NCBI GenBank assembly: GCA_045126575.1
Contig: JBGVOQ010000017.1
Coordinates: forward strand, 26,555-90,554
Direction of reading: 5' to 3'
Origin: Candidatus Onthoplasma sp.
GTDB lineage: Bacteria; Bacillota; Clostridia; Christensenellales; UBA1242
DNA: 64,000 bases
This document shows positions 4,553 through 55,465 of the stretch, in pieces. The notes under the pieces were generated by a model, which did no database searches, had not been told where the DNA came from, and saw only the letters and a list, made by a program, of their open reading frames with translations. The position numbers were made by a program, and so were the translations under genes. How positions within the stretch are numbered: position 1 is the stretch's first letter; the number at the start of each line of letters is the position of its first letter.

Positions 4553-6300
4553 TGAAACCAGCTAACAAACCTTTTATGCAAACAATAAAAAAAGTTGTTG
4601 CTTATGCCAGACCGCATAAGGCTTATTTCTACTTATCTATAATATTTGCAATATCAGCAATTGGTTTAAATATGTTTGTTCCTGTAACGCTAGGTTGGGC
4701 TATCGACTGCGTTGTTGGAGCAGGCGCAGTAAACTTTGCAAAACTAACAAAACTGCTAATACTTATAGGCGTAATTGCGGTAGTTAGTGCTACACTTGAA
4801 TGGTTTGAAGTATTCTTTGAAAACATACTAACCAACCGTACCGCTCAAAGTATGCGAAATAAATGTTTTGACAAAATCAAAAGTGTACCACTAAAATATG
4901 TAGATAACGTCCCACATGGCGATATCATGAACACTATTATTAATGATATTGAAAATGTAACCGATGGATTCCTGTCAAGCTTTAAATCAATTGTTTCAGG
5001 CATAGTAACTGTATTAAGCGTAATTATATTTATGGTCACTATCAATTTAGCTATGGCACTCGTGGTAATTGTACTTGCTCCTCTAAGCTTGTTAGTATCA
5101 GTATATATAACAAAGAAATCTAAAAAAATGTACAAAAAACAGGTTGATAAACTTGGTGAAATCAGTGGATATAGCGAAGAAATGTTAGGCAATATAAAGG
5201 TTATCAAAGCTTTTAATAATGAGCAAACTAATATCGAGAACTTTTGTAAAATCAATAAAGACCTTGCCGTATCTTCTGAAAAGGCAGCATTCTACTCCTC
5301 GCTTGCAGGACCTTGTACAAGATTTATAAACGGAACATTATATGCTATCGTTGCAGTGTGTGGAGCATTTATTTGTATCGGTGGTCATATAAGTATTGGT
5401 CAAATTTCCACATTTTTAAGTTACGTTGGACACTATACCGAACCATTTAATGAAATCGCTAGTATTGTGGCAGATATTCAGGTCGCAGTAGCCAGCGCTA
5501 ACCGAGTGTTTGAATTGTTGGAAAGCAATGACGAAGTAAGTGATGACAACAGTATAAATATTGTAAATTGTAATGGCGAAGTAAAATTAAAAGATGTGTG
5601 TTTCTCATACACACCTCAGTCTAAGTTAATTGAAAATCTTAATGTATCCGTAGGAAAAGGTAAAACAGTTGCGATTGTCGGCCCTACCGGTTGCGGAAAA
5701 TCTACAATTATCAACCTATTAATGCGCTTTTATGATGTGAACAGTGGAAAGATTATGGTAAATAATCGTGATATCAAAAATGTTACTCGTAAAAGTTTGC
5801 GAAACTGCTATGGTATGGTGTTACAGGAAAGTTGGCTATACAACGCCTCAATCCGTGACAATATCGCTTATGGCAAGCCAGACGCAACAATGGACGAAAT
5901 TATCGAAGCCAGCAAATTGGCACATGCGCATACATTTATCGAAAAGTTGCCTGATGGTTATAACACAATTATTACCGAAAATGCCGATAACGTGTCAGCA
6001 GGTCAAAAACAACTTATATGTATTGCACGTATAATGTTAACCAAGCCACCAATGTTAATACTTGATGAGGCAACTAGCAACATTGACACTCGTACCGAAA
6101 TGAATATTCAACAAGCATTTGATTATATAATGGAAGGCCGTACGTGCTTTATAGTCGCACACCGCTTATCAACTATTATAAATGCCGATACAATACTGGT
6201 TATGAACAAAGGTAGAATAATCGAGCAAGGAACACATCAGGAACTACTTGCCAAAAATGGATTTTACACCCAACTATTCAACAGCCAGTTCGGTTCATAA
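4552..6300 (+). CDS. ABC exporter permease/ATPase subunit with a consensus nucleotide-binding site
   Basis: Walker A GPTGCGKST, Walker B MLILDEATS, H-loop VAHRLS, non-canonical signature VSAGQ. Its start overlaps the upstream stop (TAATG). Confidence 0.9.
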   Translation: MKPANKPFMQTIKKVVAYARPHKAYFYLSIIFAISAIGLNMFVPVTLGWAIDCVVGAGAVNFAKLTKLLILIGVIAVVSATLEWFEVFFENILTNRTAQSMRNKCFDKIKSVPLKYVDNVPHGDIMNTIINDIENVTDGFLSSFKSIVSGIVTVLSVIIFMVTINLAMALVVIVLAPLSLLVSVYITKKSKKMYKKQVDKLGEISGYSEEMLGNIKVIKAFNNEQTNIENFCKINKDLAVSSEKAAFYSSLAGPCTRFINGTLYAIVAVCGAFICIGGHISIGQISTFLSYVGHYTEPFNEIASIVADIQVAVASANRVFELLESNDEVSDDNSINIVNCNGEVKLKDVCFSYTPQSKLIENLNVSVGKGKTVAIVGPTGCGKSTIINLLMRFYDVNSGKIMVNNRDIKNVTRKSLRNCYGMVLQESWLYNASIRDNIAYGKPDATMDEIIEASKLAHAHTFIEKLPDGYNTIITENADNVSAGQKQLICIARIMLTKPPMLILDEATSNIDTRTEMNIQQAFDYIMEGRTCFIVAHRLSTIINADTILVMNKGRIIEQGTHQELLAKNGFYTQLFNSQFGS

Positions 6301-6328: not shown

Positions 6329-7019
6329 AAATCCCTAAGTACATCATAATACCACGATATATACTATAAGTAAACTTTTCACGATAATCCTTGCTGTTTA
6401 ATAGTTTTACCTCCTCCGGTGATGACACAAATCCACATTCTACCAACACCGAAGTGTAATTGGTGCAGTTTAATATATAATAATCTCCACCGCTTACGGT
6501 TTTAGAAGTATTGCCCATATAATAACTTAAACAACCTTGAATTTTTTTTGCTGCATCAAAGCTAGTATCGCTACCTATTTGATAAAAAGTTTTAGCACCC
6601 TTACAACTATCCAATGGAAAACTATTCATATGCACACTTATCACCAAATCTGGTGTGGAATTGTTGATAATCTCTCTACGTTTGCGCATATCACTAAGTT
6701 TTTTGTTATCAGCACCATCATCATACAGCCCAGTATCGCCAGACCTTGTCATTACCACTTTTATTCCGGCATTGGTTAATAGTTTTTGTAAACTTTTAGC
6801 ATACTCAAGGTTTAAATCCTTTTCCACACTGCCATCAACTCCAATACTTCCACCATCTCTGCCGCCATGACCAGCATCAATTACAATCGTGTGTTGAGCT
6901 TTAGGTCTTGAGCCTGCCGCTATATATGGCACAGCCACCGCAAATCCCACCAAAATAGTTGCCACCAACAGCGGTATAATGTATACTAAATATTTTCTTT
7001 TATGAACCATTTTACTCAT
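6327..7019 (-). CDS. cwlD: N-acetylmuramoyl-L-alanine amidase, CwlD-like (germination-specific type)
   Basis: N-terminal TM segment, IDAGHGGRDGG, VISVHMNS, and ECGF..SP at the C-terminus. Size and layout match CwlD (Amidase_3). Confidence 0.7.
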   Translation of the reverse strand: MSKMVHKRKYLVYIIPLLVATILVGFAVAVPYIAAGSRPKAQHTIVIDAGHGGRDGGSIGVDGSVEKDLNLEYAKSLQKLLTNAGIKVVMTRSGDTGLYDDGADNKKLSDMRKRREIINNSTPDLVISVHMNSFPLDSCKGAKTFYQIGSDTSFDAAKKIQGCLSYYMGNTSKTVSGGDYYILNCTNYTSVLVECGFVSSPEEVKLLNSKDYREKFTYSIYRGIMMYLGI

Positions 7020-7136
7020 ACACTACAATATGCTTGTACACGACCTAAATATGCACTAATGCCATATATTTATCTCACTAAATACTACCCTTATTTCGCA
7101 TATAAAATTTGAAACTAGACCTATATTTTAACACAG

Positions 7137-7266
7137 TTATCCACACACAATCCACAAGTTATCCACATGTCAACACATACCATAAACCACTTAAAAATAG
7201 ATGTGTTAAAAAAGTTATCCACACAGTAAGTTGTAAATTGTGGATAACTTTTGTGGTTTGTCCACA
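7137..7266. promoter_or_regulatory. DnaA-box cluster (four perfect TTATCCACA/TGTGGATAA boxes and two near-perfect ones)
   Basis: Perfect boxes at 7137-7145, 7159-7167, 7215-7223 (plus strand) and 7239-7247 (reverse). TTGTCCACA at 7258-7266 and CAATCCACA at 7148-7156. Confidence 0.7.
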
Positions 7267-7359
7267 CATATTCACATATCAATTTTTTGTTGCTTTATGT
7301 ATTAAAAACAACCTTTTTGTAATCTAAATATTTTATATGTCAAAATGGTTATTTTTGCT

Positions 7360-7388
7360 TTGACAAAACCATTTAATATTGGTATAAT
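7360..7388 (+). promoter_or_regulatory. Sigma-A type promoter of nrnA
   Basis: TTGACA (7360-7365), 17 nt, TGgTATAAT (-10 at 7383-7388). Confidence 0.6.
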
Positions 7389-7426
7389 ACAATAGTCAAA
7401 ATTAAACATTTTAGTTAGGAGATTTT

Positions 7427-8407
7427 ATGAACCCCCAAATAAATAGATTGCTATCATCAGCAAAAAATATTGCCATTATTGGACACATTAATCCGGATGG
7501 AGATTGCTTTGGCTCTATTAGCGCTGTAAACGATTATATATCCACCAAACACGATTGCTTAATACATTGCTTTGCTCAATGCGAAACTATTGCAGAAGAA
7601 TTTAAACCATTTACTGAGGATATTAATTTTAATCCGCAACCTCTAGATAATTACGATTTATGTATATGCGTGGACGCTGCAGATATTGGCCGACTAGGAA
7701 AATATATGGACGTGTTTAACAACTCCAAAAACACTGTATGCATTGACCACCACGCCACTAATAAGGGTTTTGCAGATATTAATATTATCAACACAATTTC
7801 ATCTAACTGTGAAAATATCTACAACATGTTGCATGAAGATAATTTTGAAATAAGCAAAAAAACGGCTGGTAAATTGTTTGCCGGTATTGTGACCGATACC
7901 AACAACCTTTCAACCAATATGGTGACCGCCAATACATATAAGGCAGCAATGGACCTAATCAATAAAGGTATAAATTATTACAAAATTATCAAATTCTTTA
8001 TGGGCGGCAATAGCATGCCTCAATACAGATTGTTATCCATGGCTATGAACGGCGCTCAATTTTATAACAACAACACTATTATGGTAATGCGTATAACCAC
8101 CGACCAGTTAAATGCTGCGGGAGGAACTCAGGAAGATTTAAACCCAATTATCAACCAAGCATTTTGTATGAAACACGCAAAAGCGGCGCTACTAATAACA
8201 CCACGCAATGGTCAAGCCCATGTAAGTTTTAGAAGCCGTGGCGACATTGATGTTAGTGTGCTAGCCCAACACTTTGGCGGAGGCGGACACAAGCCGGCAG
8301 CAGCATTTACCAAACCAGAACTTTCTAGTGATGATTTAAATTTTATAATTAATAGCCTTTCTCAGCAAATAAATGCACTGCCTGAAGATAATGAAAGTTT
8401 GTTTTAA
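7427..8407 (+). CDS. nrnA: DHH/DHHA1 phosphoesterase, NrnA-type oligoribonuclease / pAp phosphatase
   Basis: IIGHINPDGDCFGS, IDHHATN (DHH motif) and GGGGH (DHHA1 motif). AGGAG RBS. Confidence 0.85.
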   Translation: MNPQINRLLSSAKNIAIIGHINPDGDCFGSISAVNDYISTKHDCLIHCFAQCETIAEEFKPFTEDINFNPQPLDNYDLCICVDAADIGRLGKYMDVFNNSKNTVCIDHHATNKGFADINIINTISSNCENIYNMLHEDNFEISKKTAGKLFAGIVTDTNNLSTNMVTANTYKAAMDLINKGINYYKIIKFFMGGNSMPQYRLLSMAMNGAQFYNNNTIMVMRITTDQLNAAGGTQEDLNPIINQAFCMKHAKAALLITPRNGQAHVSFRSRGDIDVSVLAQHFGGGGHKPAAAFTKPELSSDDLNFIINSLSQQINALPEDNESLF

Positions 8408-8558: not shown

Positions 8559-9707
8559 TTAAATAAAATCCTTGTAAATATCTTTTAAATTATCCACAAA
8601 TCCTGGCGCTTTAATATTTTCATTAGCAATTACCTTCAATGTAGAATAAACCTGTCCATCAATTACAATCTCAACATATCCAAGTTCCTGACCTATATCG
8701 CAACTAGAAATTGTGTTAGGTAAATAGCAGCGTGTTTCATATTCTGGAGTTTCTCCCTTTTTAGTTAAAATTGTATTGCAACCTTCTACCTTAACATCAA
8801 CCCTTCTTTCATCTTTACACGAAACATTTATAAGCCCACTTATGTCAAATGTATGATTTTCGTAATTTGCAAATCCATAGTTCAACAAATCACTTGCGCT
8901 TTTAAAACGGTCCTTAGTAGAGCTTGCTCCAAGCACAACGGATATCAAACTTAAATCGCCACGCTTTGCACCGACTGCCAAGCAATATCCCGCTTCTTGC
9001 GTAGAACCAGTTTTTCCGCCAATACAACCCTCGTAATATCTTGACAATCTATTGGTATTGGTCATTTCGGTAGTACGTCCACTTGGGTGTTGAAAATCCT
9101 CCAACCAAATACTAGAATATTCGTGATACTTATCATATTTTAAAACATTCTTCAATATTTGAGCAACATCCACAGCGCACGAATATTGATTGTCCGCCGG
9201 TAGACCTGTGCAGTTGACATAATTAGTATTGTCAAGCCCCATCTCCTTGGCACGATTGTTCATTATTTCAACAAAACTTGTTTCGCTACCAGCGATATAC
9301 TCTGCCAAAGCCACCGACGAGTCATTAGCGCTACAAACTATCACACTCTTTAGCAACTCGCCTAACTGATATTCACAATTCGCATCTAAGAATATTTGTG
9401 ACCCGCCCATACCGGACGCATTTTCGCTGACCGTAACTTTATCATCTAGCGATATAGAACCTTTATCTATATTTTCAAAGGTTAGCATTATTGTCATAAG
9501 TTTTACAATGCTTGCCACAGGCATACGCTCGGTTGCATTGTTAGAATGCAATTCTGTCCCCGTATCCAAATCTATTAATATTGATGCTTTAGTGTTTACC
9601 TGTGGTACATATGTTGCAGCATACGTTACATTAATATTGGCACATATTGCAAATAACATAATTAACGATAATCCTAAATACGCAATACTTCTATTAATTC
9701 TTTTCAC
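8559..9707 (-). CDS. D-alanyl-D-alanine carboxypeptidase (S11, PBP5/DacB/DacF-like)
   Basis: Signal sequence, SxxK (ASIVK), SxN (SAND), KTG (GGKTGST), and a C-terminal beta domain. Confidence 0.85.
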   Translation of the reverse strand: MKRINRSIAYLGLSLIMLFAICANINVTYAATYVPQVNTKASILIDLDTGTELHSNNATERMPVASIVKLMTIMLTFENIDKGSISLDDKVTVSENASGMGGSQIFLDANCEYQLGELLKSVIVCSANDSSVALAEYIAGSETSFVEIMNNRAKEMGLDNTNYVNCTGLPADNQYSCAVDVAQILKNVLKYDKYHEYSSIWLEDFQHPSGRTTEMTNTNRLSRYYEGCIGGKTGSTQEAGYCLAVGAKRGDLSLISVVLGASSTKDRFKSASDLLNYGFANYENHTFDISGLINVSCKDERRVDVKVEGCNTILTKKGETPEYETRCYLPNTISSCDIGQELGYVEIVIDGQVYSTLKVIANENIKAPGFVDNLKDIYKDFI

Positions 9708-9906
9708 AATTCACCTCTAACAATATCTTTTGTATTAAATTAAAAAATATTTATAAAAAAAATAAAAAGATTTAATTTTAAAACCTTTTTATTAAATATT
9801 TTTATTAAATTTGATTGTTTTTAGTACTTTAAAATAGGTAGTTGTGTTATTTTGCGTAATTAATTATTAATTTGATATTTATTTAATTTATTTTATTGTT
9901 TAATTT

Positions 9907-10350
9907 TTATTGTTTAAAAAATACGCTTATAATTTCTTCCACATTTTGCTCAACGCCATATTTATTTATTAATCCATTAAATATCATATCCAGCGATTTG
10001 CCTGATGATTCATCATTTAAACTAAGTTTAACACCCTTTTGCTCCATTTCCTTGGACATCTTGGTTAATATGCCCAATATATTATCTGTTGTGTTTTTGC
10101 TAAACCTGTTGTTATAATATGACTGATAATAGTCCCATAATTTATTATTAATTTCCATATACGCATTGCAATGTGAGCATACTAAAATACGTTTAGCGAT
10201 TTCGCTTTTGATTGGAATAAAGCAAAAATAATTGGTGACATGCAACTCCACCAAATTCACATCTCTTAATTCGTCCTTACATATTGTGCAACGCCTTACG
10301 CCGAAGTAACCTCTGTTAACTTCCTTAATATCTTTACCAAAAAATTTCAT
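9907..10350 (-). CDS. Hypothetical protein with an N-terminal zinc-ribbon (CxxC...CxxC)
   Basis: CTIC ... CSHC cysteine pairs. No other motif recognised. Confidence 0.5.
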   Translation of the reverse strand: MKFFGKDIKEVNRGYFGVRRCTICKDELRDVNLVELHVTNYFCFIPIKSEIAKRILVCSHCNAYMEINNKLWDYYQSYYNNRFSKNTTDNILGILTKMSKEMEQKGVKLSLNDESSGKSLDMIFNGLINKYGVEQNVEEIISVFFKQ

Positions 10351-10444
10351 ACCCTTAGTATATCAACAAAACAAGCCAATGTCAACCGGTAAACCTTATT
10401 AAGTTACAAAAAAAGTCCTATTTATGCAATAGGACTTTTAAAAA

Positions 10445-13396
10445 TTAACTATTGAATATTAAATTATATTCTTCTAGCGAGATTAACACTTGTCTAGGCT
10501 TACTGCCTTCGGCTGGTGATATAAATCCGTTTTGTTCCATCTGGTCAATAATACGTGCCGCACGTGCATAGCCTACACCAAATCGACGTTGTATCATTGT
10601 AATTGATGCTTGGTTTGCCTGGATAAAGAATCGCAACGCATCTTTTAACACTGGGTCAAAGTTGATTATATCTCCATCTGCGCTTTGCGCTGAAACGGAA
10701 GCGGTTTGGTTGATATCCTTTTGTGCTGACTCGTCAAAATCGGCACTATTATTTTCCTTAATAAACTTAACAACAGCAGCAACTTCACGGCTAGATATAA
10801 ACGCACCTTGTACACGCCTTGGCTCTGGCAAATCGCTTGGCTTAAACAACATATCACCCTTACCAAGCAATTTTTCGGCTCCACCCATATCAAGCACTGT
10901 TTTACTATCGGCAAAGTTGGTAAGCGCAAATGCAATACGACTAGGCAAGTTGGCTTTAATTGTACCAGTAATAACGTCAACAGATGGACGTTGTGTAGCA
11001 ATCACCAAATGTATTCCTGCTGCACGAGATTTTTGAGCCAATTTCATAATACGCTCTTCCATTTCACGCTTAGCATCAATCATAAGGTCACCCAACTCAT
11101 CAATTACAATAACCACATAAGGCAGTTTTTCAACTTCGTTATTCTTAACAATATCAAGAGCATTGTACTCCTTAATATTTACCACTTGATTTCGTTGCAA
11201 TAATGCATAACGCTCTTCCATTTCCTTGATTGCCCAGTTAAGCGCATTGATGGTTTGTTCCTTGGTTGTAATAATTTCCGGAGTTAATAGATGTGGGAGG
11301 TTTGCATAAGTTGAAAATTCCACAGTTTTAGGGTCAATAAGTATTAGTCTTAAATCTTCAGGACTAGATTTGTAAATCATACTTATCAACATAGTATTTA
11401 AGCACACCGACTTACCCGAACCAGTAGAACCGGCAACCAATAGGTGTGGCATCTTGTCAAGATTACAGAATTGCACACTTCCGTTAATATCCTTACCTAA
11501 CACAAATGACATTGGGTTCATACGCTTTTGATAGTCCAAACTTTCAATCATTTCACGCAAACTAACACCCATAACTGTTCGATTTGGAACCTCGATACCT
11601 ACTGCATTTTTACCAGGAATTGGTGCCTCGATACGGATGCTACCGTTGGATGCTAATGCCATGGCAATATCGTCAGCATGGAATTGAACCTTTTTAACAC
11701 TTACACCTTGTGGCATGCCGATTTCATATCTTGTTACCGCAGGTCCAACTTGAACAGCCTTCACTTTTGCATTAATTTTAAAATCTTGCAGTACTGTTTC
11801 GAGCTTTTCAATATTCTCATTGCACTCTTCTTCCGAAACGACTTCAACATTTTCCAAATACTCTAACAAACTTGTTGGAGGTTTAATATATTCGGCATGG
11901 TGGCGCTTAGGTCGTCCAAGCAGATTTTCCTTTTTCTCCTCCACAACTTCACGTGTGAATACCTCTGGCTTAGTTGTAAATGTTGCACTACGAACCACTT
12001 CGCTAGGATTTGCTGAAGGCAACTTAATTTCCTGCTCCTTTGGTTCTGATTTAACAACGTTAGTATTTGCATAACCACTAGAATTGCTTGTGACAAAATC
12101 TTCTGCATTGTCATCAAAGTCTTCGATAGTCATGCCATCTTCTTCTTCACCATCGTCCTCATCTTGAGTAGCGTTATTAAACATTTGTTTAACATTTTGC
12201 TGCCAATTTGATTGAGCGCTCTCAATCCCAGTAGGATTTTGTTTTTCCGTGTTTAGTGTATTATAACTATTTTGTACACTAGATGGTGTTGAGGTTTGTT
12301 GTGCAGGGTTAACTTGTGTTGGTTCTTGAATTTTACTTTCTTCTGGCATTTTTCTGCCCTCGATAACCTTGGCATCCTTATAAAACTCATCAGCATCACT
12401 TACAAATAGGTCGCTATTTAAATCAACCTTATCAAACAATTGTTTGTTAGGTTTTATTTCTGTTTTTGTAATTTCTTCAGGCTTAAAAACAGGTTCCTGC
12501 CTACGCTGAACCGGCTCGGCTTTAGGCTTTTCGTATTCCGGAATAACAATCTCTGGCGGCGTTAAAATATATTCTCGCTTGCTTTTGTATTTATTTGGAG
12601 TGTCCGGAATTTCGTCCACACGCATGCTTGAACTAATAATTGTAGAGCTACCTTGCTCCATACCTAATTTTTGTTTTGCAATCTTCTTTTTTAAGTCTTC
12701 TTGTTTGTGTTTTAAGGTAATCTCAACCTCTGGATTTTCTTCTTCTACCGTATTACCTTCAATCATTCCGCTAAAATCAAACTTGCTTTTAACAGGCTTC
12801 GTTTCCTCTGGAGTTTTATCTACTTGTCTAGCATCTAATATCAATCCAATACTCACAGTTAATAAAATTATTGATAAGATATATGCACCAACCACCGTTA
12901 AATACTTTTTCATTGGGTAGGTTAAAAGGCTCATGATTAGTCCCGCACCACTAGTTTTTAATTTGTAAGTGTCGGCTAAATATTGACCATAACTTTTAGT
13001 AGGTATTTTTGTTGTTAAAATTAAGTGGATTATCATTAGCACGAAAAACAATGCACAACTTAAAAATATTAAATATTTCTTGTTAACATCATACTTAGTT
13101 TTACCCAATCCTACCGCACACAAAAATGCACTAAGTAGCGTAATTGGGTAAGCCGAAATTCCTAGCAAGCCCAACAAAAAGTTTTTAGCAAAGTTGCTAG
13201 GCAAACACAGACTAACAAAGCTTACCACACTAACCAACAGCACAGCAATCATAATATATTTTGATAATTTAATTATATTGGGTTGTTTGGTTTTTATTTT
13301 AGGTGGCTTTTCCTTTTTCTGTTTCTTCTGTTTTGAAGTATTTAATGTTGATTTATATATTGACACAGTCCTTCCCCTTTTGTAAATATTATACAA
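10445..13396 (-). CDS. ftsK: DNA translocase FtsK/SpoIIIE
   Basis: N-terminal TM helices, a long low-complexity linker, Walker A GSTGSGKS, Walker B VIVIDELGDLM, and a C-terminal gamma winged-helix (YARAARIIDQMEQNGFIS). Start is uncertain: the TTG at 13396 versus a GTG near 13366 preceded by GGGGAAGGA. Confidence 0.9.
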   Translation of the reverse strand: MYNIYKRGRTVSIYKSTLNTSKQKKQKKEKPPKIKTKQPNIIKLSKYIMIAVLLVSVVSFVSLCLPSNFAKNFLLGLLGISAYPITLLSAFLCAVGLGKTKYDVNKKYLIFLSCALFFVLMIIHLILTTKIPTKSYGQYLADTYKLKTSGAGLIMSLLTYPMKKYLTVVGAYILSIILLTVSIGLILDARQVDKTPEETKPVKSKFDFSGMIEGNTVEEENPEVEITLKHKQEDLKKKIAKQKLGMEQGSSTIISSSMRVDEIPDTPNKYKSKREYILTPPEIVIPEYEKPKAEPVQRRQEPVFKPEEITKTEIKPNKQLFDKVDLNSDLFVSDADEFYKDAKVIEGRKMPEESKIQEPTQVNPAQQTSTPSSVQNSYNTLNTEKQNPTGIESAQSNWQQNVKQMFNNATQDEDDGEEEDGMTIEDFDDNAEDFVTSNSSGYANTNVVKSEPKEQEIKLPSANPSEVVRSATFTTKPEVFTREVVEEKKENLLGRPKRHHAEYIKPPTSLLEYLENVEVVSEEECNENIEKLETVLQDFKINAKVKAVQVGPAVTRYEIGMPQGVSVKKVQFHADDIAMALASNGSIRIEAPIPGKNAVGIEVPNRTVMGVSLREMIESLDYQKRMNPMSFVLGKDINGSVQFCNLDKMPHLLVAGSTGSGKSVCLNTMLISMIYKSSPEDLRLILIDPKTVEFSTYANLPHLLTPEIITTKEQTINALNWAIKEMEERYALLQRNQVVNIKEYNALDIVKNNEVEKLPYVVIVIDELGDLMIDAKREMEERIMKLAQKSRAAGIHLVIATQRPSVDVITGTIKANLPSRIAFALTNFADSKTVLDMGGAEKLLGKGDMLFKPSDLPEPRRVQGAFISSREVAAVVKFIKENNSADFDESAQKDINQTASVSAQSADGDIINFDPVLKDALRFFIQANQASITMIQRRFGVGYARAARIIDQMEQNGFISPAEGSKPRQVLISLEEYNLIFNS

Positions 13397-41814: not shown

Positions 41815-42552
41815 TTAAAATATGTTGGAATATCCTGTTTGAATAAATTTTTTAACGCTATCATCTGCTTCTTTTGTTTGTTGCTCGGTTTGGTTTGTTC
41901 CTCTACTTTTTAACAAGCCTTTGACTTTTGACAACAGTTTTAAATACTTATTAGCCTCTTTTAAAGAACTATCACTATAACTATCTAATTGATTTAATTC
42001 ATTACGTTTAAGTTCCAAATCCATTCCACGAGAAATCATACCCCTTCTAATAACTGCAGTTAAATAATTTAACATACGGGTAGACAACTCTTCTATTATA
42101 ATATAATTTTCTTGATTAAGCGCCCTTTTGATAATCTCCTTAGAACTCTTCTCCAACAAATATATACACGCGTTATTGGTCTTGCCTATGGTATTTATGC
42201 GGCTTTGCTTTGCGGTTTGGCCTTCGTCAGCAACTACTTCATTAAGTTTTTCCACTACCGACACCTTAAAAATTCTCATAATACAATTAGCAACTTGCTG
42301 AATCTCTGTATTATCCAGTTCTCGAATTGCAATGCCTAACTTAATATTTAAATCTCTAATCTTTTTAGCTCTAAAAGCGCCAACTACGGTATTTTGTACT
42401 ATATCCTTTTCCTTGCTTTTAATAATTTGAACAATGCTGTCGCCTAATGGAAAATCGACTCCATCATTCAAGTTATAATCCCTCAGCCCGTACAAAATAG
42501 TTGCCTTGTTTATTAACCCCCTAGCCTTTTTAAATGCTTGTTTTCTATCCAT
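41815..42552 (-). CDS. Hypothetical 245-aa protein
   Basis: Open frame with AAGGA RBS and its own consensus promoter. No motif recognised. Confidence 0.55.
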   Translation of the reverse strand: MDRKQAFKKARGLINKATILYGLRDYNLNDGVDFPLGDSIVQIIKSKEKDIVQNTVVGAFRAKKIRDLNIKLGIAIRELDNTEIQQVANCIMRIFKVSVVEKLNEVVADEGQTAKQSRINTIGKTNNACIYLLEKSSKEIIKRALNQENYIIIEELSTRMLNYLTAVIRRGMISRGMDLELKRNELNQLDSYSDSSLKEANKYLKLLSKVKGLLKSRGTNQTEQQTKEADDSVKKFIQTGYSNIF

Positions 42553-44004: not shown

Positions 44005-44952
44005 TTAAAACTTTTTATCGTACCATAATATCGTTTTGCCTATATATGTAGTAAATTTACACTTTGGCTGCCAGCCAAGTTCGTTAAATATCTTGCTAGC
44101 GTCAATGCAGTATCTTTGGTCCTGACCCAACCTATCAGGTACAAATTTAATAAGCGATTTAGGCTTTTTCAACTTTTTTAAAACAAGATTAATTATTTCA
44201 AGATTTGTTTTTTCGCAATTTGCACCAATATTGTATATCTGCCCTGCCTTGCCTTGCCTTACAATCAAATCAATTGCCTCGCAACAATCTTCGACATACA
44301 CCCAATCCCTTATTGCCCGCCCATTACCATGCACGGTTAAATCCTTGTTTTGTTTTGCATTTTTTACCATAAGCGGAATTAGTTTTTCGGGATATTGATT
44401 TGGCCCATAATTGTTAGTGCTTCTAGAAATTGTTACTGGCAAACCATATGTTTTGTGGTAAGCCATTGTTAACATATCTGCCGCCGCCTTTGAGGCGCTG
44501 TATGGCGTTGTTGGGTTAAGTGGCGACTTTTCAGTAAAAGGTTTTTGTTTAGGAGTCAGACTACCATATACTTCGTCGGTTGATACTTGATGAAATCTTT
44601 TTATTCCATACTTTTTGCATGCATCTAGCAAAACTTGTACACCATTGACGTTGGTTTTAGTAAAAATATCCGGCTTTACTATGGATTTTCCAACATGTGA
44701 TTCGGCTGCAAAGTTTATCACAACATCAAGCCCTTCACGTTTAAATAATTTGTCAACTAGTTTAACATTGCATATATTGCCCTTTATGAATTTAAAGTTT
44801 GGTTTATCCACAATATCAACAAGGTTATCCATACTACCTGCATAAGTCAAAGCGTCTAAGCATATAAAGTTATCTTGCGGATACCTATCTACCACCATTT
44901 TACAAAAATTACTACCTATAAACCCCGCTCCACCTGTAATTAATATTTTCAT
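44005..44952 (-). CDS. rfbB: dTDP-glucose 4,6-dehydratase (RmlB-type SDR)
   Basis: GGAGFIGSNF, LDALTYAGSMDNL, FAAESHVGKS, STDEVYG, YSASKAAAD. No rmlA/C/D partners are in the window. Confidence 0.85.
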   Translation of the reverse strand: MKILITGGAGFIGSNFCKMVVDRYPQDNFICLDALTYAGSMDNLVDIVDKPNFKFIKGNICNVKLVDKLFKREGLDVVINFAAESHVGKSIVKPDIFTKTNVNGVQVLLDACKKYGIKRFHQVSTDEVYGSLTPKQKPFTEKSPLNPTTPYSASKAAADMLTMAYHKTYGLPVTISRSTNNYGPNQYPEKLIPLMVKNAKQNKDLTVHGNGRAIRDWVYVEDCCEAIDLIVRQGKAGQIYNIGANCEKTNLEIINLVLKKLKKPKSLIKFVPDRLGQDQRYCIDASKIFNELGWQPKCKFTTYIGKTILWYDKKF

Positions 44953-44990: not shown

Positions 44991-46061
44991 TTAGTTTTTA
45001 GTCAATTCTTCCAAATCGCCCTGTTCGTATCCGCCATATACAAACAACTCATCAAAAACAGTTTTTAGATCACCTATAAGTTTTTGGATATATTCGTCAT
45101 TGTCCTTATTCCTTTTTATGTATTCTACAAGCCACTTGTTTTCACGTATAATTTTTAGCATTGTGACAATCTTGCTAAGCGGCTCCGTTTCAATATCAGC
45201 CCTATCATGGTGACTTACCGTAGGTTCGATTTTTTTGCCAAACACTATATTAACGTCGTACCCACCATGCGCCATCGAATTTCGTATATGCGCAATTTTA
45301 GCAAACACATTAGAATCTCGGTTAAACAATTTGTAGTAATCATTTTGCTCGTATGTCATTTGACTTACAAGCAATGCATAGTAGTTGATTAGCGCCCTGT
45401 TTTCTGGGTTTTTAAACCTTTCGTAGTGCTTTAACTTTGGGTTAAGGTAATTTTCTGCAAACCTAAGCATATCCGCCGCCAGCAAGAAATCCTTTACCTG
45501 CTCGCCGTGGCTACTTTTTACCTTATATGAAAATTGCTCAGTTGTAAGAAATGTGTACGGCATTGCCTTACGTTTAAGTTGTTGGCGGTTTATATCAAAC
45601 AATGCTTCCTTGGATATTATAATTGGCTCATCTACTATAAATTCTTTACGTTGTGGCTTTAATACAAAATTTAAACGCTTGGAATACACATCATAGTCAA
45701 TTTCAAAATTGCCATGCGCAAAACTATTGCGTATATCCTTTATTATTAAGTTGTGTGCCATGGTTGACGCTTGCTCATCTGTAAAATTTGCGTATTTAGG
45801 GTTTGATTTAATCATTTCCTTAAGCGCTTGCTCTCTATCGCTGGCTTCATACTCGATATCTGCAGTTCTATTTTCATGAACCATTGTTAACAATGTTGCC
45901 GCATACAAACAAAGTGCTCCAGCATCCATAGCCCACTCACGACAGTCTGCATCTAAATCCTTAAACATAACTTCGTTTTCCGATGTTGGAAAATGGTCAA
46001 TCATTACCCTTGCGCTCGCAAATGGCGAAATCCTAGCCGGCCGCATTATTCTAATATCCAT
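44991..46061 (-). CDS. Hypothetical 356-aa protein with two Rx4H (HEPN-type) motifs; predicted tandem-HEPN RNase
   Basis: DIRNSFAHGNF and HIRNSMAHGGY lie about 155 residues apart with similar downstream context. Start at ATG 46061 after GGAGG. The TTG at 46109 lies inside the -35 box of the gene's own promoter. Confidence 0.6.
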   Translation of the reverse strand: MDIRIMRPARISPFASARVMIDHFPTSENEVMFKDLDADCREWAMDAGALCLYAATLLTMVHENRTADIEYEASDREQALKEMIKSNPKYANFTDEQASTMAHNLIIKDIRNSFAHGNFEIDYDVYSKRLNFVLKPQRKEFIVDEPIIISKEALFDINRQQLKRKAMPYTFLTTEQFSYKVKSSHGEQVKDFLLAADMLRFAENYLNPKLKHYERFKNPENRALINYYALLVSQMTYEQNDYYKLFNRDSNVFAKIAHIRNSMAHGGYDVNIVFGKKIEPTVSHHDRADIETEPLSKIVTMLKIIRENKWLVEYIKRNKDNDEYIQKLIGDLKTVFDELFVYGGYEQGDLEELTKN

Positions 46062-46080
46062 ACAACCTCCACTACTTAAA

Positions 46081-46109
46081 ATTATATCACATACCTCTTC
46101 CAATTTCAA
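46081..46109 (-). promoter_or_regulatory. Sigma-A type promoter of the tandem-HEPN gene
   Basis: Minus strand TTGAAA (46109-46104), 17 nt ending in TG, TATAAT (46086-46081). Confidence 0.6.
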
Positions 46110-46120
46110 TATGTTTTAAT

Positions 46121-46156
46121 AAAAAAACACGTTTGACGTATAAGTCAAAAGTGTTT
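46121..46156 (-). terminator. Terminator after the second DUF378 gene
   Basis: Minus strand AAACACTTTTGAC-TTATAC-GTCAAACGTGTTT followed by a T-run. Confidence 0.65.
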
Positions 46157-46579: not shown

Positions 46580-47695
46580 TTATATCCAAATTTCATAATG
46601 GAAAGTCGAATCGGTAGTAGAATTTAAATACGCAATTGCTATAGCTAGACCCACGTTTGTTAGAGACATATTGGATAATATAGATTCATCCCACCATTTT
46701 GAGAATTCAAAAATTTTAGAATGATTATCTTGTATATTTTTTATAAAATCATCTTTTGAAACATTATCATTTATATATTTATTAAAAATAGATATATCTT
46801 CTTGTGTGATTTTATTTTTGATTTTATTAAATTGTCTTATGTCTATTAAAACCTTTTGATTGTTATCGTTTTTGAAATTAAATGAGATATTATATTTTTT
46901 CATGAGAATTTCAAGTTCTTCAGGAATATTAAATACAGATATGCCATTATTTATATGTTCATAATACTCAGAATACATAGAATCAATTAAATTAGAATTA
47001 ACTTTAATAGAAGATATTCTCGCACATTTTGTATATTCTAAATGCAAATAAACAGATTGTTTATATTCATTTTTTATTTCGGAGAACAAATCAATAAACT
47101 TTTCATATTTATTTAATAAGTCATCAAGATTTAAAGAATTTAAATGGACCTCTTTTAATATATACACTATACCTAACATTTTGAAATGGATTGGCAATAG
47201 TTTTGAAATGACTTCTGCCGACTCGTCTATTGATAATTCTAACATTGAGAGATTGTTTGTTTTTAATCTCATTGAAATTAATTCTGCCAATGTTTTGATT
47301 CCGTCGTTGTCATGAGTTTTAATTGCCGATGTTTGAATATTTTTTAAAAAGTAAATAAAATTTGGATCTCCTAGCAATTCATTAATCTTCTCTGATTGTA
47401 TCGTTTGCTCCTTTAAAACAATTCTTAGTTCGTCGGCTAAGAAATTGACTTTTTCCATTGCTTTGAGAGAAGCTTTTTCTATTATTAAAGATTCTCTTTC
47501 TGATAAGCATAAAGTACAAACTTTTATTAAATCATCAATATTAGGATTTTCAGTAATTTGAAAAATTTGATTAAATGTGTTTTCCATACATACTACTGTA
47601 TTCGTCTCATGATTTATATTATTACTATTTTCCGTTTTATTAATACTTTGGTCGTTATTATTACCCTTTATTTTTTGTTCATAACTATTATCCAT
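46580..47695 (-). CDS. Hypothetical 371-aa protein; from memory resembles the LPO_1073/Vpar_1526 family (unverified)
   Basis: Start taken at ATG 47695, which overlaps the stop of the upstream small ORF. N-rich N-terminus and helical body. C-terminal SLTNVGLAIAIAYLN....YEIWI tail. Confidence 0.6.
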   Translation of the reverse strand: MDNSYEQKIKGNNNDQSINKTENSNNINHETNTVVCMENTFNQIFQITENPNIDDLIKVCTLCLSERESLIIEKASLKAMEKVNFLADELRIVLKEQTIQSEKINELLGDPNFIYFLKNIQTSAIKTHDNDGIKTLAELISMRLKTNNLSMLELSIDESAEVISKLLPIHFKMLGIVYILKEVHLNSLNLDDLLNKYEKFIDLFSEIKNEYKQSVYLHLEYTKCARISSIKVNSNLIDSMYSEYYEHINNGISVFNIPEELEILMKKYNISFNFKNDNNQKVLIDIRQFNKIKNKITQEDISIFNKYINDNVSKDDFIKNIQDNHSKIFEFSKWWDESILSNMSLTNVGLAIAIAYLNSTTDSTFHYEIWI

Positions 47696-47843
47696 TGTTA
47701 ATGTCTCCAATTTGTTGTTTATTGTTATTTCCTTTAGCTTTTTGTTTAATTTTTAAACTGTATGTTTTTGTGAAAAACCCACCTATGAAACCTAATACAG
47801 AACTTACTAAACCAATTATTAAATTCACTAACCAATCTGGCAT
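47688..47843 (-). CDS. Small single-TM peptide (51 aa), below the ORF-track cutoff and translationally coupled to the 371-aa gene
   Basis: My own translation: MPDWLVNLIIGLVSSVLGFIGGFFTKTYSLKIKQKAKGNNNKQQIGDINNG. AAGGAGG RBS at about 47851-47857. It overlaps the downstream ATG by 8 nt (ATGGATAA). Confidence 0.55.
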   Translation of the reverse strand: MPDWLVNLIIGLVSSVLGFIGGFFTKTYSLKIKQKAKGNNNKQQIGDINNG

Positions 47844-47910
47844 ATCTTTAGTCCTCCTTATAATTAAAGTAAGTATAGCACATATTTCTTAAAATTGTAT
47901 ATATTCTGAC

Positions 47911-47941
47911 AAAAAAGAGAAGAAGTTTTTTACTTCTTCTC
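47911..47941 (-). terminator. Terminator closing the non-coding stretch downstream of the NDT-like gene
   Basis: Minus strand GAGAAGAAG-TAAAAAA-CTTCTTCTC followed by TTTTTT. Confidence 0.6.
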
Positions 47942-48255
47942 GTGGGTTTTATTGATTGGATTGCAAATGAGTGTAGACTTCATTTGCTGATAGGTTAGAA
48001 AAGTTGCCGTTAGTTTCGGCAAAGTTCTTTAAGTCAGTTGCAAGAATAAAAGCAATTCTCTTTATTTGTTTTGACTTAATTCTGTTTTGCCTTGCCTTAA
48101 TAATTTGGGGAGCGATTCAAAATGCATCTCGGGGTATGTTCAACTGAACCACCAAAAACCAACTATTTTGTAGTGGTTTTTAGCGTTGAAATTTCAATTT
48201 TGAGTCCGCTCCTTATCCTGCTCCCTAAAATTTAATGACAATTTATGTCGTTTTG

Positions 48256-48762
48256 TTATTTTTCAAAAGAAAAATCCGGTTTATATTTATGGTATTTATC
48301 AAACCATTCACGACTATTCCACATTTCATTTTCCATTATAAGAATTTCGCACAATCTTTCTGGTGAACATATATTAAATTTTTCGGTAATTAAACTGGAA
48401 ATAAGTTCATCTTGTGGTTGTTCTTGAAAATAGACTTCTTGTCCTTTTGCTATAAGATATCCTAGTTCAAACATTGCAGTTCCGCCAATATAACCATTGC
48501 TATTACAGCAATAAACAACATCGGAAGCAAGTAACGCCTTTAAATAATCTTTTTCTAGTTCTCTTGGTGATTGAGATTTATCTGTATCTAATAAAACAAA
48601 TGAGACATCTTTTGAACCTGAAATTGTTGTTGATTTAGGAACCAAAACTTTAAATCCTTTATTTAAAAATATTTCTTTTGCTCTCTGAATATCCTCCATT
48701 TGTTTTCTGAAAGAGCCAATTATTGAAATTGTTTTATATTGTTGTCCATTAAAAGTTTTCAT
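48256..48762 (-). CDS. Nucleoside 2-deoxyribosyltransferase-like fold protein (168 aa)
   Basis: N-terminal ISIIGSFRK and C-terminal NGYIGGTAMFELGYLIAKGQEVY match the DxGTxxExGyAxxxgKPV-type motif of the NDT/Rcl superfamily. Start at ATG 48762 after GAGG. Promoter TTGAAA-17-TATTAT at 48808-48780. Confidence 0.55.
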   Translation of the reverse strand: MKTFNGQQYKTISIIGSFRKQMEDIQRAKEIFLNKGFKVLVPKSTTISGSKDVSFVLLDTDKSQSPRELEKDYLKALLASDVVYCCNSNGYIGGTAMFELGYLIAKGQEVYFQEQPQDELISSLITEKFNICSPERLCEILIMENEMWNSREWFDKYHKYKPDFSFEK

Positions 48763-49038
48763 ATAATAACCTCGTAAGTATAATATCATAATATATAAAT
48801 TTTTTCAATACCAATTCTAAAATTTGTCTAATGTTTTGTATAATATTTTTCTAACAAATTTCATTAGACACGAAAAAAAGTGTGATTTTTCTGTTAGACA
48901 TTTTGTTAGACATCATACATTAGTGCCAAAAACCGTTGATGTGAATGTAATTTAATGAAAAGTGAAGAATGAAAAATGAAGAATTAGAAAATCATAAACA
49001 AAACCTTAACTTTTCATTATTAATTAGTCATTTATCAT

Positions 49039-49062
49039 TAAAAAACTCTGCTGTTAAGCAGA
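49039..49062 (-). terminator. Terminator immediately after the Ser-locus structured module
   Basis: Minus strand CTCTGC-TTAACA-GCAGAG followed by TTTTTT. Confidence 0.6.
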
Positions 49063-49072
49063 GCGATTTTTT

Positions 49073-49199
49073 ATGGCGGAGAGTTAGAGGCGACTGCGTT
49101 AAGAAAAGTTGCCAGTGGCAAGTTTTTAGCATAAAGCGGGAGCAACTTGTTGCGGTCCGGGTCGACAGACCGAACCCTTTGTGTGTCGAATCCCGCCCT
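49073..49199 (-). ncRNA. Candidate structured RNA/DNA module with tRNA-Ser-derived ends (same family as 14546-14671)
   Basis: Minus strand TTAGGGCGGGATTCGAC...AACGCAGTCGCCTCTAACTCTCCGCCA. Same three hairpins as the Arg copy. The last 14 nt are identical to the tRNA-Ser 3' end including CCA. Confidence 0.4.
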
Positions 49200-49202
49200 A
49201 AA

Positions 49203-49258
49203 ATAAAAAATAAACCCAATCAAAACACATGGTGTTCGATTTAGGTTTTGATTGGCGG
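49203..49258 (-). repeat. Right direct repeat of the islet (genuine tRNA-Ser 3' tip plus downstream hairpin)
   Basis: Aligns with 46468-46523. Confidence 0.7.
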
Positions 49259-49339
49259 AGAGTTAGGGATTCGAACCCCAGGATGCTTGCACATCAACGG
49301 TTTTCAAGACCGCCGCTTTCGACCACTCAGCCAACTCTC
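49252..49339 (-). tRNA. tRNA-Ser (anticodon TGA), long variable arm, CCA encoded
   Basis: Minus strand GGAGAGT-TG-GCTGAGTGGTCGAAAGC..GGTCTTGAAAACC..variable arm..TGGGG-TTCGAAT-CCCTA-ACTCTCC-G-CCA (88 nt). Confidence 0.93.
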
Positions 49340-49374
49340 CATATATTAAACTATGTTACATTTGCAACAAGTAT

Positions 49375-53080: not shown

Positions 53081-55465
53081 TTATATACTTTCATCATAAA
53101 CAACTGTATACCAAATGTCGCCATTTGCTTGTTTTTCTGAAATTACAGTATAGCCTTCTGCAACGTAGTTTGTGCCTTGACCTTCAGAAGCATTGTTTGA
53201 TGGATCAAAATTCACAAATGTTCCGCCATAAATAACAACGTTTGCTGAACCGTTTCTATAATTTGCATCAATACAGTTAATTACATAAGTTTGGTTTTCT
53301 GTTTGACTTTCAAAGAAACCACCATTAATTGTAACTGTTCCTTCCACTACATTAATTGCAGTAGTACCACCAACATATCTACCACCGTTAATTTCCAAGT
53401 TTGCACCATTACGAACACACACAGCATATAATTCTGCATTTGCAGCAGTTATAACACCACCAGTGGTACCGTTAAATTGTACGTATCCACCATTTACATT
53501 TATTCCTGCCCAGTTAGCAGTTTCGCTTGTTGCGTTAGGGATATCTAAGTTGATAGTATTATCACCAAAATAAACAACTTTATCTTGAGTTATAATTGCC
53601 TTAGCCTCTGCACTCTCGCTTGTTTCAACTATATCAACGGCAACACGAACTTCAACAGTTTCGTCATTATTAGCAAACAGGTCTTTAGCACTTGTTGTAA
53701 CAGTATACCAAACATCGCCATTTGCATCAGTTTCAGATTTCGCAACGGTATATCCTGCTGGAACAAAGTCTGCAGTAGGATATTCGCTTGTACTACCATC
53801 TGGATTGTAGTTAGCAAATGTTCCACCATAAACTTCAATAGTTGCTCTGCCATTTTGATAATATTCGTCAAAACAGTTTAGAGTATATCTACTATCGCCA
53901 GTAACTTCTGATAGTTGTTTAATATCAAATGTTCCGCCCTTTACAATTAATCTTCCAAATTTAACATATACTGAATGCACATTACCTATATATGTTCCAC
54001 TTTCGATTGTACATGTTCCGCCATTACGGATATCAATTGCATAGCAGTCATCTTCCTTAGCATCAACTGTTCCGTTTTTGATAGTTAAATTTCCGCCATC
54101 AACTGAAATTAAAGACCATTGGCTATTAGCAGGGTCCCAAATGCCATCCACATTGTTAATAGTGTGGCCATTTAAGTCAAGGGTTAGCTTTGAAGTAATA
54201 CTTAGTGGAGCGTCTAGCACCATATCACTTGACAATGTTGCTGTAACATCTATATCCATAGGGATATATGACAACATTTCAATTGCTTGCTGTTTTTCAA
54301 CAACTTGATAAACTCTTACACCTTGCTCAGGTTCGTAGTCTACAACAATCTTATCATTAGATACATAGTTTGTATTTACACCTTCACTTAGGTTGTTTGT
54401 AGGGTTAAAGTTTACAAAATAACCGCCGTTAATAACTACGTTTGATGTGCCATTTGTATAATTTGCGTCCAAACAATTTATTGTGTATCTAGAGTCCTTT
54501 GTTCTAGGATCTAGTTGTTGTATTGCAAATGCGCCACCGTTAATTACCAAGTCGCCTTCATACACATATACAGCACTTATATTTCCAACAAAAGTTCCTG
54601 ACTCGATAGTACACTTACCGCCCTCTCTAACATCAATAGCATAACAATCGTTTTCCTTAGCCATCATTATACCATCTTCATTTTCAGATGAATCACTAAC
54701 AATTAGTTCGCCACCATCAACAACCGATAACAATGACCACTTGTCGTTATCTTCATTCCAAAGGTCTTCAGTGTTTGAAATTTTCTTACCAGCTAGGTTA
54801 ATTTCCACCTTCTTAGAAATATCAATTTGCTTATCTAGCACAACGTCAGTTGTAAGCATAATTTCGCCACCCTCAGAAACCACCTCAAGCGCCTTTTCGA
54901 AGGTCATTTCGCTACCAACATATATTGTATGTCCTAGGTAAACTCGTTCGGTTGTAGTTGTATCGTTTGAGTAATGGAATGTAATATCCATATATACATT
55001 TTCATCCGCGTCACAGAATGACTTGGTAGAAACATTTACAATGCCAACACCTTGCTCACCTTGAATTCCTTGGTCACCCTTGTCACCTTTTTCGCCTTGA
55101 ATACCTTGCTCACCTTGAATTCCCTGGTCGCCCTGAGGACCTTGTGGACCTACTGCGCCTTGTGGTCCCTTAATGTTAGAAACTCGTATCCAGCCTTGTT
55201 CGTTTAGTTGCCACACATTTCCGTCATCAGTTTCGATATAAAAATCGCCCACTTTGCCTGGATTATCTAACTTGTTTGGACTTTCAGCACCATAGTAAAA
55301 ACTTGTGCCTGCTGGCGCCTGGATTGAACCGCTTTCGGTATCACAACCAACTAACAATCCGCCCGAAATCATTGCTGTACCCAACAATGCACACAATGCT
55401 CCCTTTTTCAAAACATTAAAAGGAACTTTACCTTTGTTTTTAGCAAATTTTTTATTCTTTGCCAT
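53081..55465 (-). CDS. Lipoprotein with a collagen-like G-X-Y tract and three copies of a ~130-aa beta-rich module
   Basis: Lipobox LLVGC (Cys41). 13 uninterrupted G-X-Y triplets (nt 55049-55168). Three paralogous modules, each containing CYAIDxRxGG.CTIESGT..G...VYV and ending in NxDPxxNxSEG. Confidence 0.75.
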   Translation of the reverse strand: MAKNKKFAKNKGKVPFNVLKKGALCALLGTAMISGGLLVGCDTESGSIQAPAGTSFYYGAESPNKLDNPGKVGDFYIETDDGNVWQLNEQGWIRVSNIKGPQGAVGPQGPQGDQGIQGEQGIQGEKGDKGDQGIQGEQGVGIVNVSTKSFCDADENVYMDITFHYSNDTTTTERVYLGHTIYVGSEMTFEKALEVVSEGGEIMLTTDVVLDKQIDISKKVEINLAGKKISNTEDLWNEDNDKWSLLSVVDGGELIVSDSSENEDGIMMAKENDCYAIDVREGGKCTIESGTFVGNISAVYVYEGDLVINGGAFAIQQLDPRTKDSRYTINCLDANYTNGTSNVVINGGYFVNFNPTNNLSEGVNTNYVSNDKIVVDYEPEQGVRVYQVVEKQQAIEMLSYIPMDIDVTATLSSDMVLDAPLSITSKLTLDLNGHTINNVDGIWDPANSQWSLISVDGGNLTIKNGTVDAKEDDCYAIDIRNGGTCTIESGTYIGNVHSVYVKFGRLIVKGGTFDIKQLSEVTGDSRYTLNCFDEYYQNGRATIEVYGGTFANYNPDGSTSEYPTADFVPAGYTVAKSETDANGDVWYTVTTSAKDLFANNDETVEVRVAVDIVETSESAEAKAIITQDKVVYFGDNTINLDIPNATSETANWAGINVNGGYVQFNGTTGGVITAANAELYAVCVRNGANLEINGGRYVGGTTAINVVEGTVTINGGFFESQTENQTYVINCIDANYRNGSANVVIYGGTFVNFDPSNNASEGQGTNYVAEGYTVISEKQANGDIWYTVVYDESI

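Follow-up and report, generated by a model that had tools for sequence, protein, structure and literature searches.

We have investigated a 64,000 nucleotide stretch of DNA from Candidatus Onthoplasma sp. (GenBank assembly GCA_045126575.1, contig JBGVOQ010000017.1, positions 26,555 to 90,554 of the forward strand; referred to here as the window) and, in particular, a minus-strand gene for a compact protein of 356 amino acids that carries two HEPN-type motifs (Table 1). The motifs lie in the peptides DIRNSFAHGNF and HIRNSMAHGGY, spaced 149 residues apart, and a preliminary description of the window, made from the DNA letters without database searches, had located both of them correctly. Upstream of the gene is a DUF378 gene (E 2.8e-13) and downstream of it, at 44005-44952, is a gene for a dTDP-glucose-4,6-dehydratase-type epimerase/dehydratase (rfbB-type). 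The open reading frame (ORF) listed at this position, 44991..46109 on the minus strand, starts at a TTG and would encode 372 amino acids, however, this TTG belongs to the -35 hexamer of the promoter and was rejected as the start of the gene. Because of this, and because a GGAGG sequence stands just ahead of the in-frame ATG at 46061, we take the ATG to be the true start codon; the same starting methionine is seen in almost all homologues.

Table 1. Features of the locus, in window coordinates; elements of secondary structure are those of the AlphaFold2 (AF2) model.
Feature	Position	Strand	Remarks
Coding sequence of the 356-amino-acid putative double-HEPN protein	44991..46061	(-)	ATG at 46061, stop codon TAA at 44993-44991, begins MDIRIM
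First catalytic-type motif, R111-N-S-F-A-H116	45714..45731	(-)	At the end of helix 95-116
Second catalytic-type motif, R260-N-S-M-A-H265	45267..45284	(-)	At the end of helix 251-264
N-terminal HEPN-like module, residues ~36-172	45546..45956	(-)	Helices 41-64, 74-86 and 95-116; strands 120-150; helix 151-170
C-terminal HEPN-like module, residues ~173-345	45027..45545	(-)	Helices 174-206, 220-246 and 251-264; strands 268-294; helix 295-318
Sigma-70-type promoter, TTGAAA-17-TATAAT with extended -10 TG	46081..46109	(-)	11/12 consensus positions
Ribosome-binding site, GGAGG	46066..46070	(-)	4 nt 5' of the ATG
Hairpin and U7 closing the upstream DUF378 gene (context, outside the protein's own unit), a plausible terminator	46118..46156	(-)	12 pairs, one mismatch

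In the six-frame translation of the window (127,996 residues) the pattern RN...H is found 8 times, which corresponds to approximately 0.02 expected in 356 amino acids, and with such rarity two copies within one protein of this size are not due to chance; the longer pattern RNS.AHG is found in the same translation at the two motif sites only. A word-indexed search for homologues recovered 41 clusters, nearly all of them 340-390 amino acids in length and none with a functional name, while an exhaustive HMMER search of 1.84 billion representatives gave 55 matches at E<=1e-3, from which a 566-amino-acid protein (P0087) was discarded as an unrelated repetitive protein. Two alignments were built, A1 from 39 homologues and A2, which is broader and extends down to ~20% identity. 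Searching 5.8 billion proteins with the A2 profile closed the family at 58 clusters, again none of them named, and gave no link to any named family. NCBIfam gave no match for the protein and PHROGs gave noise only. Members of the family come solely from metagenome-assembled genomes (MAGs) of gut or rumen Bacillota, specifically Candidatus Caccovivens, unclassified Clostridia and one member of the Erysipelotrichaceae, and when the representative genomes of 185,579 species were scanned, with a pattern that limits the search, 7 loci only were returned.

Family members in A1 and A2 are 340-430 amino acids long with two motifs each, and conservation of both motifs extends over 39 close relatives and 34 distant ones. 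In A1 the invariant residues are R111, N112, H116, G117, N118, R260, N261 and H265. In A2 they are N112, H116, G117, F119, R260 and H265, with R111 and N261 conserved in at least 90% of sequences. Thus, the arginine and histidine of each motif, on whose conservation the preliminary description had let its interpretation hinge, are invariant in A1, and so they are in A2 except for R111, with its conservation of at least 90%. The gene itself is under purifying selection, with a ratio of non-synonymous to synonymous substitution rates (dN/dS) of 0.11 against its 87%-identical orthologue in L002, the closest long contig among the 21 loci that we examined (labelled L001-L021).

The AF2 model of the protein has a mean predicted local distance difference test score (pLDDT) of 89.3 and a predicted template modelling score (pTM) of 0.90, and divides the chain into two modules of similar layout (Table 1), the C-terminal one having an additional helix at residues 322-341. 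A short beta-like stretch had been suspected behind each motif, and the model indeed places three strands after either of them, at residues 120-124, 129-134 and 147-150 following the first motif and at 268-271, 281-286 and 289-294 following the second. When residues 36-172 were aligned with residues 173-345 using hhalign, the two halves matched with a probability of 94% (E 1.4e-7, 90 columns) and the motifs, the helix that precedes them and the strands that follow them all fell in register. The score of this alignment was 42.8-48.7 across settings, compared with 15.2 for a reversed control and 19.1 for the best of 20 column shuffles. The comparison makes a solid case, at the level of sequence, that the two halves arose through internal duplication, as had also been suggested in the preliminary description. 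At the DNA level the sole notable direct repeat, D3, is the DNA encoding the two motifs.

With the window protein as the query, the Pfam matches at E below 0.001 are to HEPN families, PF18735 at 23.0 bits and PF18736 at 22.4 bits, with DUF7035 as a weaker match (E 0.021). PF18736 is matched at E<=0.01 by 38 of the 39 members (best 3e-7), and of the ten families listed for members the six HEPN families account for nearly all matches, each of the four non-HEPN families being matched by one member. The HEPN families and models concerned are PF18736, PF18735, PF18731 (Swt1-like HEPN, matched weakly in eight members), PF18733, PF18737 and PF18730, together with the PADLOC models CARF_HEPN, Csx1 and RTasHEPN; CARF_HEPN and Csx1 match weakly at residues 214-285, the region of the second motif, and RTasHEPN matches in the region of the first.

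The best-matching curated family is pEK499_p136 (PF18736), founded on a 166-amino-acid 'HEPN family nuclease' of plasmid pEK499 (WP_000528932.1), from which we gathered an alignment of the family (A3). Comparison with A3 by hhalign gave P 1.8e-3 for the N-terminal half and P 1.7-2.6e-4 for the C-terminal half, with alignments anchored on RNSxAH that continue through the strands and, for the C-terminal half, also through the last helix. For a genuine pEK499_p136 protein the AF2 model (pLDDT 82.3) runs through a helix, a second helix, short helices, one more helix, with RNSVAH at its end, then three strands and a long helix, and this order of elements, H-H-h-H[RNxxAH]-E-E-E-H, is the same in each half of the window protein. 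In HEPN domains the Rx4-6H motif has been placed 'at the end of helix-3' (PMC3710099), and the position of the motif in both halves fits this rule, the residue after the arginine being polar (asparagine) and conserved.

A number of results weigh against this assignment. The window protein does not reach the gathering cut-off of either Pfam family (22.4 vs 26.6 bits for PF18736 and 23.0 vs 28.4 bits for PF18735), and, when the halves alone are compared with Pfam, N-terminal halves score 15-19 bits to PF18736/PF18735 and C-terminal halves 0-15 bits. The hhalign scores against A3 barely exceed the best of 20 column shuffles (25.7 vs 24.5 and 31.4 vs 27.5), almost no Pfam matches were obtained with 20 distant members, sequence and A1/A2 profile searches of the PDB were empty, and Foldseek with the full model retrieved no similar structure from the PDB (best E 0.2) or BFVD (best E 0.12). 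These results would be compatible with the protein being no HEPN nuclease, and with its duplicated RNSxAHG belonging to some other, undescribed fold that serves in, for instance, the binding of a ligand or nucleic acid and not in nucleolysis. However, the matches that are seen, weak as they are, fall nearly all on HEPN families and in register on the motif, the order of secondary structure is identical to that of a genuine HEPN family, and the R, N and H that remain invariant in both copies constitute the catalytic signature (PMC3710099). Moreover, a Foldseek control with the genuine pEK499_p136 model likewise found no match (best E 1.2), and since a true family member is equally invisible the Foldseek negative carries no weight on the question of HEPN membership. 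We therefore regard an undescribed, non-nucleolytic fold as most unlikely and consider it likely, if short of proof, that both halves belong to the HEPN superfamily. The earlier assignment to the HEPN type thus stands insofar as the profile evidence from Pfam and hhalign points almost entirely to HEPN families, while for the window protein all matches stay below curated cut-offs and the fold itself was not confirmed by Foldseek.

The known HEPN systems provide a background against which the protein can be placed. HEPN RNases are metal-independent and require two adjacent Rx4-6H motifs, which are paired between subunits or, in Cas13, inside one chain (PMC3710099; bioRxiv 10.64898/2026.03.20.713152). 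The resemblance to pEK499_p136 lies in the RNSxAH motif, followed by a strand F/I-x-I/V, and in the shared order of secondary structure. However, genuine members of that family have 136-200 amino acids (typically ~155-170), one unit and one motif, whereas the window family has two units in ~350 amino acids; the halves of the window protein are much nearer to each other than to PF18736, and the hosts of pEK499_p136 are mostly Proteobacteria and Bacteroidota, as opposed to gut Clostridia. Because of the single-unit layout of that family, and because the PF18736 threshold is not reached, we have not filed the window protein within it.

With Cas13, for which two HEPN domains were called a 'unique signature' in a 2019 review (PMC6452270), the sole resemblance is the presence of two R-N-x-x-x-H motifs per polypeptide. 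Cas13 proteins have several hundred to more than 1000 amino acids, against 356 here, and the window protein has no evident crRNA (CRISPR RNA)-binding lobe, both of its halves being HEPN-like; neither PDB sequence searches nor Foldseek gave a match to Cas13 structures. In line with what had been stated before, there is no CRISPR-like array in the 64-kb window and no cas gene among the ten large ORFs scanned (500-983 amino acids, including all above 600), which encode FtsK, GyrA, GyrB, MetRS, ArgRS, DnaB, a RecN-like protein, ABC transporters and a collagen-repeat protein.

AbiF/AbiD (Abi_2, PF07751), which has been proposed as the root of Cas13, is closer in format, being a compact HEPN protein of ~340-370 amino acids from Bacillota that is encoded by one protein gene and is often tandem-duplicated. 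AbiF has one HEPN motif, forms a homodimer and is neutralised by an upstream non-coding RNA (ncRNA) carrying abiF motifs (PMC12373285, PMC13064643), whereas the window protein has two motifs per chain, a very short 5' untranslated region (UTR) and no abiF or other Rfam match, and PF07751 is matched neither by the window protein at E<=10 nor by any of the 39 members. HEPN dyads within one chain are known from eukaryotic Swt1, whose HEPN units are listed as inactive, and from MJ1666-type Csx1 (PMC3710099). In these proteins the dyads are combined with PIN or Rossmann/CARF sensor domains, whereas the window dyad makes up essentially the entire protein and has both motifs intact. ApeA is a stand-alone HEPN protein with its own promoter and no antitoxin that is active only on infection (bioRxiv 10.64898/2026.03.20.713152), but with its ~600 amino acids it combines an N-terminal sensor domain with a single HEPN motif, and is a homodimer; the PADLOC ApeA model does not match the window protein. 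Finally, the type II/VII toxin-antitoxin systems that pair a HEPN protein with a minimal nucleotidyltransferase (MNT) differ in that no MNT gene adjoins the gene here, its immediate neighbours being the DUF378 and dehydratase genes.

The gene has a promoter of its own, which had been described as perfect; the promoter is indeed present, while its match to the consensus is near-perfect (Table 1). The -35 element, TGnTAnAAT and GGAGGTTGTATG are kept in the related loci L002, L003 and L018, and the GGAGG ribosome-binding site is invariant across 4 related loci. With just 19 nt between the end of the -10 hexamer and the ATG, the 5' UTR must be very short. The preliminary description had further placed a strong terminator between the DUF378 gene and the gene studied here, and the hairpin found there (folding energy -11.6 to -12.8 kcal/mol, z = -4.0), with the U7 that follows it, agrees with this, although a simple terminator scan did not flag it; we consider it plausible that it terminates the DUF378 gene. 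On the other side, the 38-nt gap to the dehydratase-type gene holds no terminator-like site on scanning, again as described before. A promoter-like site at 45014-44985 (10/12 positions) could independently drive that downstream gene.

The earlier remark that no antitoxin or partner is in sight holds over a larger sample. Clustering of ORFs over the 21 loci showed that sharing is limited to the gene itself and to synteny within sublineages, with no conserved neighbour, MNT gene, cas gene or conserved small ORF; nor do these loci show a CRISPR array or an ncRNA ahead of the gene. It is nevertheless conceivable that the protein is a toxin and that its antitoxin, which could be an unlinked gene, a very small ORF or a small RNA (of type I or III, like those of AbiF/AbiV), escaped recognition. 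MNT proteins and RNAs are common antidotes to HEPN toxins (PMC3710099, PMC13064643, PMC12373285), AbiF was formerly considered solitary before it was found with its upstream ncRNA, and short unannotated ORFs do adjoin some members of the family (142 amino acids in L018, 153 amino acids in L020 and DUF1653 in L006 and L012). However, the upstream intergenic gaps measure just 64-243 nt, and the 110 nt available in the window are taken up by the terminator and promoter; Rfam, at both the gathering score and E<=5 and with the abiF motif included, gave no match, and there is no repeat array. Antisense promoter-like sites are at chance level (12 found vs 12.9 expected) and no neighbour is common to different sublineages. 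We consider a toxin with a hidden antitoxin to be very unlikely.

In HEPN RNases two motifs make up each active site, and this is almost always achieved by homodimerisation. We propose that the window protein is instead a single-chain, pseudo-dimeric HEPN RNase acting alone, most likely in conflict or stress, a reading that we hold to be probable, if only moderately so. A pEK499_p136-like HEPN unit, of the kind that in its stand-alone form of ~160 amino acids would pair as a homodimer, judging by other HEPN nucleases, may have been duplicated internally to give a single-chain 'dyad' of two HEPN-type modules. Each module would present R-N-x-x-x-H at the end of its third core helix, and at the interface between the modules the two motifs would come together as one metal-independent RNase site which, by analogy with characterised HEPN nucleases, should leave 2',3'-cyclic phosphate ends. 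Since the duplication supplies both motifs in one chain, an intramolecular pseudo-dimeric site, with pairing as in Cas13 in place of homodimerisation, would be the natural reading. The protein is envisaged to act without a partner, from its own strong promoter and ribosome-binding site. With a near-consensus promoter, a strong ribosome-binding site and no antitoxin found, it follows that the resting protein must be harmless, and this could be due to autoinhibition or dependence on a trigger, as for ApeA, or to a narrow choice of substrate.

The surroundings of the gene bear on what such an enzyme might be for. The window is core chromosome, and within it a low-GC islet (46580-49250; 0.22-0.29 vs ~0.35-0.40 in its surroundings) adjoins tRNA-Ser(tga) (49253-49340). 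The islet holds a 376-amino-acid orphan, a 51-amino-acid hydrophobic peptide and a 177-amino-acid protein with a weak nucleoside 2-deoxyribosyltransferase match; the 376- and 177-amino-acid proteins gave no PADLOC and no significant Pfam match, and the peptide no Pfam match. In L002, three genes that are absent from the window, for proteins of 280, 209 and 163 amino acids, the last a NADAR protein, stand between DUF378 and the HEPN gene (3124-5405). A variable segment thus adjoins the gene in both cases, and the interval between DUF378 and the HEPN gene is a variable hotspot. The NADAR gene matches the PADLOC candidate PDC-M42C (E 4.8e-8).

Restriction-modification genes, (serine) recombinases or prophage genes occur within ~5 kb of the gene in L001, L004, L008 and L021. 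In the last of these (8945-13035), P0041, the close homologue that has diverged most, has an S24 repressor-like peptidase, helix-turn-helix genes and a large terminase at distances of 2-5 kb, and because of these it appears to be beside or at the edge of a prophage. Two tandem paralogues, 70% and 58% identical to the window protein, are found in L018 (4660-7303) with the unannotated 142-amino-acid ORF between them, an arrangement that hints at an accessory or conflict gene. In L016, from a roe-deer caecum MAG, a family member is split into overlapping ORFs of 162 and 233 amino acids (4380-5502), the result of either an assembly error or a frameshift that made it a pseudogene. A 365-amino-acid gene beside the L019 copy was also considered as a paralogue and proved to be unrelated.

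Given the rarity and patchy distribution of the family, its tandem paralogues and the frequent presence of variable or mobile DNA nearby, a role in conflict or stress, similar to that of Abi proteins or ApeA, seems the most likely one. Some findings run counter to such a role. Searches of phage, plasmid and IMG/VR collections gave no homologue, and PADLOC on ten neighbours detected no known system, only the candidate for the NADAR gene of L002. Furthermore, the window and L002 share synteny around the gene, which stands among core genes there and diverges at a rate similar to theirs, its 87% identity between the two lying between those of the rfbB-type and DUF975 genes (81-83%) and those of BipA and HU (99%). 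The absence from those collections and the synteny are what one would expect from the main rival to our proposal, in which the protein, still a double-HEPN enzyme, is a lineage-specific housekeeping endoribonuclease that processes rRNA, tRNA or mRNA, like eukaryotic Las1, and whose narrow substrate specificity would mean that no antitoxin is needed. A housekeeping role would also suit the strong, constitutive-type promoter and ribosome-binding site, the low dN/dS, a host-like G+C content (0.35-0.38) and a location among genes such as those for BipA, HU, the rfbB-type enzyme, GyrA/B and DnaB, while the presence of DUF378 and TMEM164 nearby in several loci suggests vertical descent within a sublineage. 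It is more difficult to reconcile with a rare and patchy family, known from the 7 loci of the pattern-limited species scan and ~58 clusters, whose gene changes location between sublineages, is present as tandem paralogues in L018 and as a split copy in L016, and adjoins variable segments in the window and L002. On balance, we judge the housekeeping role to be rather unlikely and continue to favour a solitary RNase of conflict or stress.

We conclude that the protein represents a new architectural variant inside the HEPN superfamily, belonging to an unnamed family; no description of the family was found in the literature, in which no search was aimed at one. In the reviews consulted, one chain with two active HEPN units is represented only by Cas13 (PMC6452270) and by dyads fused to other domains, as in Swt1 and some Csx1 (PMC3710099). 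The present family would be a bare, conserved dyad of ~350 residues, with both motifs intact and no partner. If active, it would be a second, independent case of HEPN duplication and fusion and among the smallest self-contained two-HEPN enzymes, and one would have to ask how an RNase without a partner is kept silent. A more far-reaching idea, which we put forward as speculative and on the whole unlikely, is that the family is an independent, minimal two-HEPN-in-one-chain design of ~350 amino acids, guide-free, partner-free and triggered by infection or stress, which originated from a pEK499_p136-like unit and not from AbiF. If this were true, the duplication and fusion of HEPN domains, the step thought to lead to Cas13, would have occurred more than once, and the protein would serve as a very small scaffold on which to build a triggerable RNase. 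A housekeeping role, if that is what the protein has, would make it a new enzyme of RNA processing in poorly known gut Clostridia.

Other features of the window and of L002 were noted in passing. The downstream dehydratase-type gene, a single ORF of 315 amino acids in the window, is split in L002 into ORFs of 163 and 145 amino acids (6654-7573). At 41815-42552 the window encodes a 245-amino-acid protein that belongs to no Pfam family and has a weak PADLOC match to PDC-S15 (E 8.9e-4); it is 48% identical to its L002 counterpart, compared with 99% for the flanking HU and BipA, and its gene is therefore evolving fast. Further along, at 53081-55465, lies a 794-amino-acid ORF with a match to collagen-triple-helix repeats, inside which there is an 18-nt tandem repeat at 55049-55120.

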